A stretch of 64,000 nucleotides of DNA from a virus. Taxonomy: Duplodnaviria > Caudoviricetes. Of this stretch, positions 1 to 9,501 are shown piece by piece. Numbering within the stretch: position 1 is the first letter of the stretch; each line of letters begins with the position of its first letter. Made by a program: the position numbers and the translations under genes. The notes below the pieces were generated by a model, which saw nothing but the letters and a program-made list of their open reading frames with translations, had not been told where the DNA came from and did no database searches. Location: IMG/VR virus record IMGVR_UViG_3300031998_000057, positions 1 through 64,000 of that record; one strand, given 5' to 3'.

Positions 1-900
1 CCCCCCAGTGGTATTTTCTACCAATTCGCCAGATGCCACCTTGATTTCCCCAGGATGGTTCTTTATCATCTGATCGAAAGCTCGGATATACAGTTCCCGA
101 TACCGCGGAAATAGCTCAAAGTCACGCAGCATACCCTCGCGGCCTTGAAGCGGACATCCGATGCAGCCGAGACGGGTATAATTCCACGGCGGATCGTACA
201 GCTCGCAATGTGGGACTTTGGCAACGTCGTTGAGAAATTCCCACACGTCTTCGTCCGTCCAATCAACAATAGGGTTTATCGTAGTCTTGCGCTTCATGTA
301 GCATTGCTCGACCATCTGCCGCCCAACGTCGTTATCGTCCATGAAGTTGATACCGCCGTTCTTATTTACCCGATATGACGGGTCTTGCGCGGCCTGCGCG
401 TGGAGTTTTTTGCTCTCGGTCTGGATGTCGGCTACGCCGTGCAGTGCCCGCCTGCGGTTGCTTTCGGCCCAACGGACGCCCGTAACGACGACACGTCCAC
501 CCCCCCCGGTTTCTTTCAGCGCAGAGCAGCAATATCGCGCCTGCCGCGTCGGTGGGATCGTATGGTCTGCAATCAGGTTCCACATGGTAATCTGCCGCGG
601 TCTTCCGTCCTTGTGGTAGTGCTCCGGTTTGTCGTCGTCCCAATAATTTCGTTCCCATATCACATCGGGATATTCCTCGCGGATAAATCGCATTACCTGT
701 GGAGGGTCAACGGAAGTTACCGAATAGTGTGCATCGAATTTGACGCCAGCCATTTTTGCGAGTTCGTAGATACATTGGCTATCCTTTCCACCGCTGAAAG
801 CTAAATAATAGCCCTTTACTGGCACAAACGCCTTTAGCCTCGTTATAGCTTTTTCTACCTTGTCCTCGCGCCCAAATAGCGTTTCTTCAACAAGTGCCAT
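1..900 (-). CDS. PAPS reductase-like (PP-loop) protein, runs off the left edge
   Basis: Own translation from ATG at 900: MALVEETLFG..LAFSGGKDS..RYCC..TGVRWAES..NPIVDW..RLGCIGCP; absent from the ORF track because there is no stop inside the window. Confidence 0.85.
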   Translation of the reverse strand, partial: MALVEETLFGREDKVEKAITRLKAFVPVKGYYLAFSGGKDSQCIYELAKMAGVKFDAHYSVTSVDPPQVMRFIREEYPDVIWERNYWDDDKPEHYHKDGRPRQITMWNLIADHTIPPTRQARYCCSALKETGGGGRVVVTGVRWAESNRRRALHGVADIQTESKKLHAQAAQDPSYRVNKNGGINFMDDNDVGRQMVEQCYMKRKTTINPIVDWTDEDVWEFLNDVAKVPHCELYDPPWNYTRLGCIGCPLQGREGMLRDFELFPRYRELYIRAFDQMIKNHPGEIKVASGELVENTTGG

Positions 901-1880: not shown

Positions 1881-2029
1881 TTCTTGCTTCTCCCTTTCGT
1901 TGGCTTTTCTTCTTTGTCCGGCACGTTGCGGACGCTGTAGCCAGCTTTCTTCATCTGCTTAATGATCTCGTCGGGGTACGGCGTCGTCGTGCGGCATTTC
2001 ACGACCCCGTGCAGGCTGATTATTTGCAT
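1877..2029 (-). CDS. small hypothetical protein
   Basis: MQIISLHG.. with GGAGG RBS; coupled to neighbours. Confidence 0.5.
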   Translation of the reverse strand: MQIISLHGVVKCRTTTPYPDEIIKQMKKAGYSVRNVPDKEEKPTKGRSKK

Positions 2030-2226
2030 ACCGTCCTCCTGTTCCAAGCATCCACGGCCTCGCGCTCCGTGTGATACCACGGTCCTTCTGCCCCGCATCC
2101 GTTGTCCTCGTAATCGCAAAGGACGGCGTATCTGTCTCTCCAACCGTCCTTCCCCTTGCGCACAGTAATGGTAAGATCGTCGTTCCCGCAAAATGGGCAG
2201 GGCTTTAGCTTCATTTCGATCTGCAT
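2020..2226 (-). CDS. Lar-family restriction alleviation protein
   Basis: LKPCPFCG..C..CGA..AVDAWNRR. Confidence 0.8.
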   Translation of the reverse strand: MQIEMKLKPCPFCGNDDLTITVRKGKDGWRDRYAVLCDYEDNGCGAEGPWYHTEREAVDAWNRRTVCK

Positions 2227-2227
2227 A

Positions 2228-2461
2228 TCACTCGCCCCTCCCGCTCCAATGCTCCCCGCACAGCTTTTCAATTGTAGCTTTCAGCGATCCGACTACGACC
2301 TCCGCCTTGCCGTTGGAGAAAACGATTTTCGTGTTCCCGCCTACGTCCGTCAGATACTCCTTCACATAGACGATCTGCGCAGGGTTCACATAGATTTTAT
2401 CCGCCGGGTCCATCGCCCGCCGGAACGGTACAAACTCCGTCCCGCTCATCAATATCACCAT
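2228..2461 (-). CDS. hypothetical protein
   Basis: 77-aa ORF in operon. Confidence 0.6.
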   Translation of the reverse strand: MVILMSGTEFVPFRRAMDPADKIYVNPAQIVYVKEYLTDVGGNTKIVFSNGKAEVVVGSLKATIEKLCGEHWSGRGE

Positions 2462-3254
2462 CCTTCAAGTGTAATCTGCGCATTTTTCTTCAAAACCGAG
2501 TCTGGCGGTATTTCCTGCCCGTTCACGACCTTATACAGCCGCTTCGTGCAGATCGGGCAAGTGTACTCCACGCCGTATCGGTTATCTCTCACAATGCCCG
2601 TACCTCCGCAGCAGCTATACGGCACGATCATATCTAACGTGGGCCGCGGTTCCTCCGCATAAAGGCAATGCAGTGATTTATCAAAAATATACGCATAGCG
2701 GTGTTTGCGCGGTTTGTCCACCCATACACCTTGTAAATCCCTCACCTTGCCCCTCGGCTTTCCCTGCGTCTCAAAGCTCCAAAAATCGGCCTTTTGGTCT
2801 GTCAGCCCGTAATACTTGAAATTGCAGACCTGATAGATAGACCCAACGTGGCGGTCAGAAGTTGCAAGAGTAATGACCGCTCGAATGTTATAATTCTTAA
2901 CTGCTCTTAACCCCCCCCCAACAAAAATGATGTGGCGTTTGACCCGTTCAAATTTGGCAGCATACAAAGCCGCGTCAGTTCCATCACGCTCTTGTTGTCG
3001 TTGGAAAGGCCGAACCAACCTTTCAGCGCTTCACTACCCTGCGGGCAGGCAAACGTCGCCACGCCCACAAGCTCCCACCCGCAGAAAAGGCCGAAGGAAT
3101 ATTGCGAAAAGAACTTCGCCGCGCCCAAATAGTGATACTGTCTCACGAAGTCGTAGGCAATATCCTTGCTGATCTCTCGGATTTTGAATATATCCTTTGC
3201 GCGGATCTTGTGTACCTTGAAACGGTCTATAAGCTCTTGCTCCGTATCACTCAC
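2455..3254 (-). pseudogene. mom: Mom-family (GNAT-fold) adenine-modification enzyme, frameshifted in a G9 tract
   Basis: HYLG..LVGVATF..ELTRL..N in one frame; VITLA..HVGSIYQ..NFKYYG in the next; the break is at C9 2911-2919. Confidence 0.75.
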
Positions 3255-4210: not shown

Positions 4211-5125
4211 TCACAGCATATTGAAAAGCGACTGCGTTTCCATTGCGGTCTCCCGCTCGGCCTGCCGCAAGTTTTTTACGGCAAGGTTGTAATAGCTTTC
4301 TTTCAGCTCCACACCGACGTATTTGCGCCCCATCTTCACGGCCTGATACCCCGTGCTGCCGATCCCGTTGAACGGGTCAAGAACCACGTCACCCAGATTG
4401 CTCCAAAGCTCCACGCACCGCTCGATCACGGGAAGCTGCAACGGCGCGATATGCTTTTCGTCGTTCTCGTCTTTGGCTCCGGCTCGGTTCAGCGTATCAC
4501 TCTGATTGATGTCCCACCACACGGGGCTGGCGTATTCGCTCCACACGGGAGACGCCACTTCCTGCCAATGGCTGACGGGATAGGTCTCATTCGTGTGGGT
4601 CACGCGCTGCGGGTTCTCACCGGGCTTGCGAAACGTCACAACGTAATCGGGAATCCCCATGCGGCTCATGCAGGAATCTTTTTTGATCTGCTTATGAAGC
4701 AGGCCGAGCGCTTTTGTCCTCTGCATTGCCGTCACCGGGTCTTTCCAAATGCAGACTTCCGAATGATAGATGAAGCCCACGGACTCCATCAGGCGGATTA
4801 CGTCGCCGCGAAAGTCTTTCAGCCCGATATACCCGTCCCGCTCTTTCATGGCCGGGATGTTCATGCAATGGACGCAGACGCAGCGCCCAGGCATCGTCAC
4901 CCGATACCATTGCTCCACGAGGAATTTGTACTGCTCAAAAAACTCCCCGTCAGATTTGCAGTTCCCCATATCCCTGTCGCTGTTGGAATAGCAGTACAAC
5001 TGAGCAAACGGGATAGAGGTCACGGAAAGGTGGACGCTGTTCGTGGGAATACCTTGCAGAATCTCCACGCTGTCCCCATGATAGAGAATCCAATTCTTTC
5101 CACGTTCCTGTCCTTCACACTTCAT
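4211..5125 (-). CDS. beta-class N4/N6 DNA methyltransferase
   Basis: GDS..VTSIPF (motif IV variant) followed by VLDPFNGIGSTG (motif I). Confidence 0.85.
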   Translation of the reverse strand: MKCEGQERGKNWILYHGDSVEILQGIPTNSVHLSVTSIPFAQLYCYSNSDRDMGNCKSDGEFFEQYKFLVEQWYRVTMPGRCVCVHCMNIPAMKERDGYIGLKDFRGDVIRLMESVGFIYHSEVCIWKDPVTAMQRTKALGLLHKQIKKDSCMSRMGIPDYVVTFRKPGENPQRVTHTNETYPVSHWQEVASPVWSEYASPVWWDINQSDTLNRAGAKDENDEKHIAPLQLPVIERCVELWSNLGDVVLDPFNGIGSTGYQAVKMGRKYVGVELKESYYNLAVKNLRQAERETAMETQSLFNML

Positions 5126-8439: not shown

Positions 8440-8528
8440 TGGCGCAGGCAGCAGGATTTGAACCTGCGGAGCCTTTCGGCCCATCTGTTTTCAGGACAGA
8501 CGCAATAAGCCAGCTCTGCCATGCCCGC
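8440..8528 (-). tRNA. tRNA-Ser(TGA) with C33
   Basis: Cloverleaf with long variable arm, G73, encoded CCA; anticodon loop CC-TGA-AA. Confidence 0.85.
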
Positions 8529-8704: not shown

Positions 8705-8782
8705 TGGTGGGCCGTCAGGGACTCGAACCCTGATCTTCTCTGCTTTTGAGGCAGCTCCGTCTTCCCATTGCGGCAACGGCCC
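8705..8782 (-). tRNA. tRNA-Leu(CAA)-like with short variable region
   Basis: GGGCCGT/ACGGCCC-A-CCA, loop CT-CAA-AA, T loop TTCGAGT. Confidence 0.75.
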
Positions 8783-9063: not shown

Positions 9064-9088
9064 ATTATACGGATTATTTTTTGGACGG
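9064..9088 (-). promoter_or_regulatory. class II motif CCGTCC-N13-TATAAT
   Basis: Upstream of the small ORF and RNA cluster. Confidence 0.6.
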
Positions 9089-9501
9089 CCTGAATACCAC
9101 CACCATGCTCGGAAACGGCGCGGAATTGTCGCTCCCGCCGAATTTCAGCCGCCCCTTGACGAATCGAACCTCCGCCTGCTTGTAGATGTAATCGTGGAAC
9201 CACCGCGTATCCGTCCGCGCAGGAAGCAGCATGACCACCGTGGCCCCGTTCTTCGCCGCTTCCCACGCTTTCGCTACCCATCGGCCTACCTCACGACCAT
9301 ACGGGGGATTGCACCAACAGCACCCCCCCAATTTTTGGAAAGTCCGTCGTCCTTCGGCGTGTAGTACCGCGCACACTTCGCGTTCTCCGGCAGCGCGGCC
9401 ACGTCAAGCGTGAAGTGAAACTCGGCGTCCAGCTCGTCGAAAAACGCCTGCGGTGTTTCCCATAAGCCCGTCGCGCTCGAAAACATCAAATCCGTGTTCA
9501 C
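9074..9501 (-). pseudogene. phage DNA N6-adenine methyltransferase (phage Dam family), frameshifted in a G7 tract
   Basis: WETPQ..FTLDVAA..DDGL in one frame; WCNPPYG..LLPARTDTRWF in the next; the break is at C7 9323-9329. Confidence 0.85.

Follow-up and report, generated by a model that had tools for sequence, protein, structure and literature searches.

Bacterial phasevarions carry simple-sequence repeats in the mod and hsd genes of Haemophilus, Neisseria and Helicobacter. The phage locus described here is similar in that a repeat lies within a DNA-modification gene and a frameshift would turn the gene ON or OFF, and in that several such loci generate combinatorial states, as a Mom-like gene and a Dam gene together would. 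However, phasevarions involve cellular methyltransferases that rewire host gene expression, whereas the present genes belong to a virus, for which the probable advantage is to evade restriction.

Contingency loci and poly-G tracts are already known in phages. The agt contingency locus of phage T2 contains an A9 run at bases 288-296, which reverts approximately 1000-fold faster than a point mutant, and the phage alternates between defences that hit modified and unmodified DNA (Gomez, Barrick and Waters, bioRxiv 10.1101/2025.10.21.683753). The present locus is like agt in having a nine-base homopolymer within a phage DNA-hypermodification gene, with a one-base on/off change; for agt, each state has the advantage under different host defences. 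However, the T2 system was demonstrated experimentally and concerns an A run in a glucosyltransferase gene that is ON in the wild type of a virulent coliphage, whereas the present case concerns a G run in a Mom-family gene of an uncultured gut or rumen phage whose consensus is OFF, and the evidence is comparative. Hypermutable poly-G tracts also occur in coding sequences of Campylobacter Fletchervirus phages, in which runs of 7-11 give mixed progeny; these tracts lie in receptor-binding proteins, in which they alter host range, and not in DNA-modification genes (Sorensen et al. 2021, Cell Rep 35:109214). Our literature search found no report of a Mom-family gene controlled by tract length.

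The enzyme to which the present gene is related, Mom of phage Mu, uses Gly-tRNAGly as the donor of a glycine that is attached to N6 of adenine, after which the product rearranges into the carbamoylmethyl/acetamido adduct (PMC13219725). An earlier note on this DNA had named N6-acetamido-adenine as the product of Mu Mom; that account of the chemistry needs updating in this light. R111, S124 and R151 are essential in Mu Mom, as are H58, Y59 and Y159 (PMC13219725), and an HTH-like insertion (residues 175-209) is needed for activity. Mu mom is toxic and is tightly silenced by several controls (PMC3378877, PMC6483171).

The split mom gene and its likeness to Mu Mom

The phage with the split mom gene is uncultured and comes from gut or rumen. 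Its record (IMG/VR IMGVR_UViG_3300031998_000057, Caudoviricetes) is a linear, metagenome-assembled virus of 72,531 nt that is approximately 92% complete (CheckV), and the window, i.e., the whole stretch of DNA analysed, is its first 64 kb. The features of the mom region are as follows.

2455..3254, minus strand: Mom-family (PF25680) gene with a -1 frameshift, 266 aa if the run were G10
2907..3254, minus strand: N-terminal half-ORF of mom, 115 aa plus TAA
2455..2922, minus strand: C-terminal half of mom in the -1 frame, 155 aa
2911..2919, minus strand: G9 homopolymer in mom (C9 on the plus strand)
2020..2226, minus strand: Lar-like restriction-alleviation protein, two genes downstream of mom
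4211..5125, minus strand: N6/N4 DNA methyltransferase, intact, in the minus-strand block of mom

The mom gene starts at GTG 3254, which is preceded by a GGGAGG ribosome-binding site and overlaps the stop of the upstream gene. The N-terminal frame runs for 115 codons to ..NATSFLLGGG* (TAA at 2909-2907). The C-terminal -1 frame, which reads VGGGLRAVKNYNIRAVITLATSDRHVGSIYQ..., goes on from the G run as GGGLRAVKNYNIRAVITLATSDRHVGSIYQ... (155 codons), with a stop at 2457-2455 that overlaps the start of the next gene. The G9 run consists of the G of a TTG Leu codon, two GGG Gly codons and the GG of GGT, and the in-frame lengths of the tract are 10 or 7. A G10 run gives TTG GGG GGG GGG TTA (..SFLLGGGLRAV..) and restores the frame. 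At the tract site, LLGGG[I]R is found in the intact homologues nearest to this gene, which makes G10 the in-frame length; the closest (72-74% identity, 260-270 aa) read SFLLGGGIR, ungapped. The earlier note had described two halves joined across G9 (2911-2919) and a frame restored by G10, and this description was confirmed in every detail.

Its assignment of the gene as Mom-like was also borne out. The N-terminal half matched positions 2-90 of the Pfam profile PF25680 (Mom) with 49.8 bits, and the C-terminal half matched positions 93-190. A read-through, which was built by skipping two G (equal to G7), gave a single PF25680 match over profile positions 2-190 of 202, with 81.5 bits where the curated threshold is 27.1. 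PHROG 1384 ("Mom-like DNA modification protein") was matched at 1e-26. Promoter-like and terminator-like sites within mom were no commoner than in shuffled sequences.

Residues were compared by a HMMER alignment to 8bv8, in which Mu numbering is the 8bv8 chain numbering plus 9, and the roles of the Mu Mom residues were taken from PMC13219725. The Mu Mom comparison overall draws on PDB 8bv8, PMC7261163 and PMC13219725. The N-terminal half contains H41 and Y42 (Mu H58 and Y59), R95 (R111) and S105 (S124; Ser here, Thr in most relatives). The C-terminal half contains the rest of the GNAT core, the invariant R134, Y140 (Mu Y159) and a CC...CPxC zinc-ribbon tail. Mu R151 aligns one or two columns off the invariant R134, so this pairing is uncertain; R134 probably plays the role of R151. 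By this alignment, the two proteins share a Pfam family and the equivalents of H58, Y59, R111, S124 and Y159. However, their identity is only approximately 19%, and Mu W48 is not conserved.

An AF2 model of the intact homologue P0004 (73% identical; pLDDT 90.4) gave the two chains of Mu Mom (8bv8_B and 8bv8_A) as its top PDB matches (E 1.7e-9, TM 0.67 by target), above generic GNATs, and the GNAT fold of Mu Mom is thus the best structural match. The Gly triplet encoded by the tract sits in the helix after strand 4 of this model. In what is probably the place of the HTH-like insertion of Mu Mom (175-209), the P0004 model has a coil at 189-218 followed by beta-hairpins that carry the CC...CPxC zinc ribbon. 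By analogy with Mu Mom, we consider that the product of this Mom subfamily would be an adenine hypermodification.

All invariant residues of the family are kept in the mom gene of the window, and its six conservative changes among 108 conserved columns are within the range of the intact homologues. Therefore, the other decay that the earlier note had expected of a dead gene with a fixed G9 was not seen. Judging from the placement of the catalytic residues, neither half is expected to work alone. A two-piece Mom enzyme was also considered; it is unlikely because essential residues lie on both sides of the break and no start codon with a ribosome-binding site was found near it.

The gene resembles Mu mom in its placement among anti-restriction functions. 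In addition to the Lar-like gene and the intact methyltransferase gene, its minus-strand block holds DUF1599, dUTPase and SNF2 helicase genes. The Com/Dam/OxyR/C control, which belongs to Mu, is absent here, and tract length would control the gene instead. The mom gene overlaps both of its neighbours, with a GTGA-type overlap at its start (3247-3254) and ATGGTGA at its end (2455-2461), and the early stop at 2907 could also reduce the coupled translation of the downstream 77-aa gene. ARAGORN found tRNA-Ser(TGA) and tRNA-Leu(CAA) at 8440-8528 and 8705-8782 (minus strand), and no tRNA-Gly.

Some IMG/VR phages have two tandem Mom-family genes (L018 2938-4525; also L019-L028 and L048-L055). In these pairs, a member of the CC...CPxC-tailed subfamily comes immediately before a paralogue that is closer to Mu Mom. 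Such tandem genes, as in L018, account for the long tblastn spans of some Mom genes; an intron was therefore rejected as their cause, and Rfam gave no match.

G runs in the window and a second split gene

In the 72.5-kb record, the G9 run of mom exceeds every other homopolymer in length. The three longest G/C runs in the window (9, 8 and 7) all lie in genes of modification type, namely those for the Mom-like protein, a PAPS-reductase-fold protein and Dam, respectively. The record has a fourth G/C run of at least 7, a C7 at 72432-72438 (8432-8438 of L165), which is near the end of the record and has no convincing ORF. The features around the second and third runs are as follows.

1..900, minus strand: PAPS-reductase-fold gene, open at the window start
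500..507, minus strand: in-frame G8 run (ETGGGG) of the PAPS-reductase-fold gene
9074..9501, minus strand: phage Dam N6-adenine methyltransferase (PF05869) gene, split
9323..9329, minus strand: G7 run at the Dam break

The composition of the mom tract is unusual for this genome, in which TTG makes up 10% of Leu codons and GGG 22.5% of Gly codons. Given the peptide LLGGG and the codon use of the genome, the probability of a run of at least nine G is approximately 0.005. GGG-GGG encodes 2 of the 182 Gly-Gly pairs, both at the mom tract. Long ORFs contain 26 Gly-Gly-Gly tripeptides; the all-GGG form is found only at mom and is avoided by the other 25.

The Dam gene is split by a -1 frameshift in its G7 run. 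Its N-terminal half corresponds to positions 9-59 of the PF05869 profile and its C-terminal half to positions 61-146. A G8 run would restore ..KNWGGCCWCNPPY.., as in the intact relative P0174, which is 86% identical and reads KIWGGCCWCNPPY. Other Dam relatives are present as C-half-only ORFs starting at the run (P0205, P0221 with 14 members, P0258 and P0274). We tentatively raise the possibility that this clade operates a multi-gene "viral phasevarion", with independent poly-G switches in a Mom-type hypermodifier, Dam and possibly the PAPS-reductase-fold gene. Bursts would then include several DNA-modification types, among which host restriction and modification-dependent defences might select.

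The tract in the window's lineage and its relatives

The identical split mom halves were also found in Logan/ENA assemblies, on a 50,987-nt contig that may derive from the same sample as the JGI record. The same split Dam N-terminal half is present on this contig. Two further haplotypes in the same 90% cluster are broken as well. P0127 ends in LLEGG* at the same length, its run being interrupted by a change from G to A with only a G7 stretch remaining. P0126 ends in LLGGGKSSKEL* in the third frame, which fits G9 followed by TA and not TTA; it has L83P at a nearly invariant column, and the only deducible substitution in its C-terminal half (GTT to GTA) leaves the amino acid unchanged when read in the Mom frame. 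In a collection of 5.8 billion proteins, no ON (G10) allele of this lineage was found; its five contigs are all OFF, and intact relatives reach at most 74% identity.

If these breaks were a sequencing or assembly artefact, the true genome would have G10 (and G8 in Dam), with its poly-G runs under-called. The record is metagenome-assembled, and each of the two broken genes lacks exactly one G in a G run, at the kind of site (a homopolymer) where indel errors classically arise. Many of the contigs from relatives are also short, and their coverage is probably low. However, ORFs of 636-1481 aa in the window span all A/T runs of 6-7 nt unbroken, and the G8 run at 500-507 is in frame; thus, the assembly is not prone to homopolymer errors. 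Moreover, the split recurs in other assemblies and in two distinct haplotypes, one of which retains only a G7 stretch, and a sister lineage described below has shifted forms at approximately 50%, far above consensus-level error. For these reasons, a random assembly error or a homopolymer sequencing error, the latter named in the earlier note as a real alternative, now appears very improbable.

The sister lineage, P0006, is 74% identical to the gene of the window and has intact and split forms within one 90% cluster. Intact 270-aa proteins are present on approximately nine contigs and split 156-aa C-terminal halves on approximately 11. Tract lengths in the relatives were deduced from out-of-frame protein tails, not from DNA. 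The N-terminal halves in this cluster include a -1 form (LLGGAYGR*; one G fewer, with GGC as the third codon), a +1 form (LLGGGHTG.., LLGGGHTGVEERG..; one G more) and a -2/+1 form (LLGGDTG.., LLGGDTGVEERG..; two fewer or one more). Split P0145 is the C-terminus of intact P0141, and split P0147 is that of intact P0006, with no differences in either protein pair. Since two protein haplotypes are identical in both states, the indel appears to recur or revert in this lineage. At the level of these sequences, indels that fall at one site in either direction, affect approximately 50% of the copies and occur on identical backgrounds have the signature of a hypermutable tract, a pattern that neither a single ancestral lesion nor consensus-level error would be expected to give. 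The comparison of tract length across homologues, which the earlier note had suggested as a check, thus revealed variation in the P0006 lineage (-1, 0, +1 and -2/+1), but only OFF forms in the lineage of the window.

Among approximately eight frameshift-type truncated N-terminal fragments of the family, five break at the tract (the window's cluster, P0128, P0129, P0133 and P0137) and three elsewhere. Judging from the protein tails, the tract seems to be present in at least three lineages. None of the 15 sequences in clusters that encode LLGGS or LLGGA was split (P0018, n=11; P0008, n=4). Across 120 homologue clusters, the tripeptide at the site is GNS in 57, GGS in 23, SNS in 15, GGA in 5 and GGG in 3. 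Because the three GGG clusters are all nearest relatives of the window's gene, the long run is a derived feature of a small clade. Family-wide conservation of the tract was rejected, since distant homologues encode LLGNS without a G run and GGG is confined to these three clusters. An additional Mom homologue, P0132 (ENA, 169 aa), turns into unrelated sequence after LLGGSLKELNKQN, approximately ten residues beyond the tract site; an insertion, a frameshift or a mis-assembly may be the cause.

Searches for the DNA of close relatives gave at best 55-59% identity in IMG/VR, plus a partial locus (L061) at 73% without a G run. The best values elsewhere were at most 60% in JGI metagenome contigs, at most 60% in GTDB genomes (three loci) and at most 35% in GenBank phages. 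The IUPAC pattern NATS[FY]LL followed by G8 or more had no match in IMG/VR.

A mutational hot spot is also the first break site of a gene under relaxed selection. The tract may therefore mark a plain pseudogene, in which case the Mom-like and Dam genes are unneeded and have broken at their most mutable site, with no regulatory or bet-hedging role. All sampled copies in the window's lineage are broken, in two different frames, one with an interrupted run and one with L83P, and no intact relative exceeds 74% identity. In addition, two modification genes are broken, while the third methyltransferase (4211-5125) is intact and could suffice. However, both mom halves are otherwise intact with every invariant residue kept, the substitution deduced in the C-terminal half of P0126 is silent, and the tract is made of codons that the genome otherwise avoids. 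Furthermore, one-way loss does not predict a sister lineage that is approximately half ON and half OFF on identical backgrounds. We consider a plain pseudogene to be rather unlikely.

Programmed recoding was considered as a further explanation for the G9 run. G9 would then be the normal state, and each infection would yield a small amount of full-length enzyme, whether from RNA-polymerase slippage on the run or from a -1 shift of the ribosome at G GGG GGT beside the TAA, keeping a toxic enzyme low. The toxicity of Mu mom and the several controls on it (PMC3378877, PMC6483171) fit such a scheme. The out-of-frame form is the only state in the window's lineage, and G GGG GGU conforms to X XXY YYZ with a stop directly after it. 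However, in-frame intact genes are the rule in the family, and the relatives are shifted differently (-1, +1 and -2); therefore, no single recoding event is conserved. A frameshift-stimulating RNA structure downstream of the run was rejected, with an MFE z-score of +1.39 and 187 of 200 shuffles folding as well. In general, G-rich heptamers serve poorly as -1 sites, and the documented cases of efficient transcriptional slippage are mostly at A/T runs. Recoding thus appears highly improbable.

A candidate contingency locus in a Mom-family gene

We propose, with a probability of approximately 0.55, that the G9 run of mom is a slipped-strand contingency locus that is in its OFF length here. At the level of sequence comparison, this reading draws on the frameshift, the family assignment, the breaks at the tract in several lineages, and the ON and OFF forms on identical backgrounds in the sister lineage. 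The rare codons of the tract, the lack of other decay and the split of Dam at G7 in the same genome are also in its favour, as is the precedent of T2 agt. The points against it are that the window's own lineage is entirely OFF, that the interrupted run of P0127 looks locked-off or decaying, and that P0126 has L83P. Concerning the slipped-strand phase variation suggested in the earlier note, hypermutability of the tract gained indirect support from the sister lineage (intact and split forms on identical backgrounds), but the window's lineage yielded no ON allele.

Under the contingency reading, a ribosome translating the G9 form would stop after 115 residues (OFF), and no active enzyme would be made because the catalytic residues are divided between two frames. 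Slipped-strand mispairing during phage DNA replication would add or remove a G, giving G10 (ON) or G8/G9 (OFF). With G10, the enzyme would be encoded at its full length of 266 residues (ON). If it works as Mu Mom does, it would draw on Gly-tRNAGly to hypermodify adenines in all double-stranded phage DNA of the infected cell. Since the enzyme would act in trans, protection would lag the mutation by one infection cycle and would first be seen in phages released from a cell infected by an ON variant. With slippage in both directions and this delay of one cycle, the population would always hold a minority in the other state.

We know of no defence that targets Mom-modified DNA, and a benefit of the OFF state against such a defence is suggested by analogy. 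Under this reading, the tract would be reversible in the window's phage, the ON form would be active, and switching would bring a selective benefit (protection from restriction set against cost, toxicity or modification-dependent defence). We infer the benefit of the switch from the toxicity and silencing of Mu mom (PMC3378877) and from the alternation of T2 agt between defences, and we speculate by the same analogies that the mom switch may have a bet-hedging role.

Mom-type hypermodification is among the broadest anti-restriction devices, and in Mu it is costly and placed under several layers of control. If the present reading is true, the phage would meet the cost of Mom in quite another way, by a heritable stochastic switch, and the recently proposed concept of phage contingency loci would reach beyond coliphage T2 to uncultured gut or rumen phages and to a second chemistry. 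In annotation, such split genes pass as pseudogenes or as a pair of hypothetical proteins and are thus overlooked. Independent switching of Mom and Dam would turn a phage population into an epigenetic mixture, which would bear on methylation and kinetic signals in metagenomes, on host assignment and on the prediction of restriction escape.
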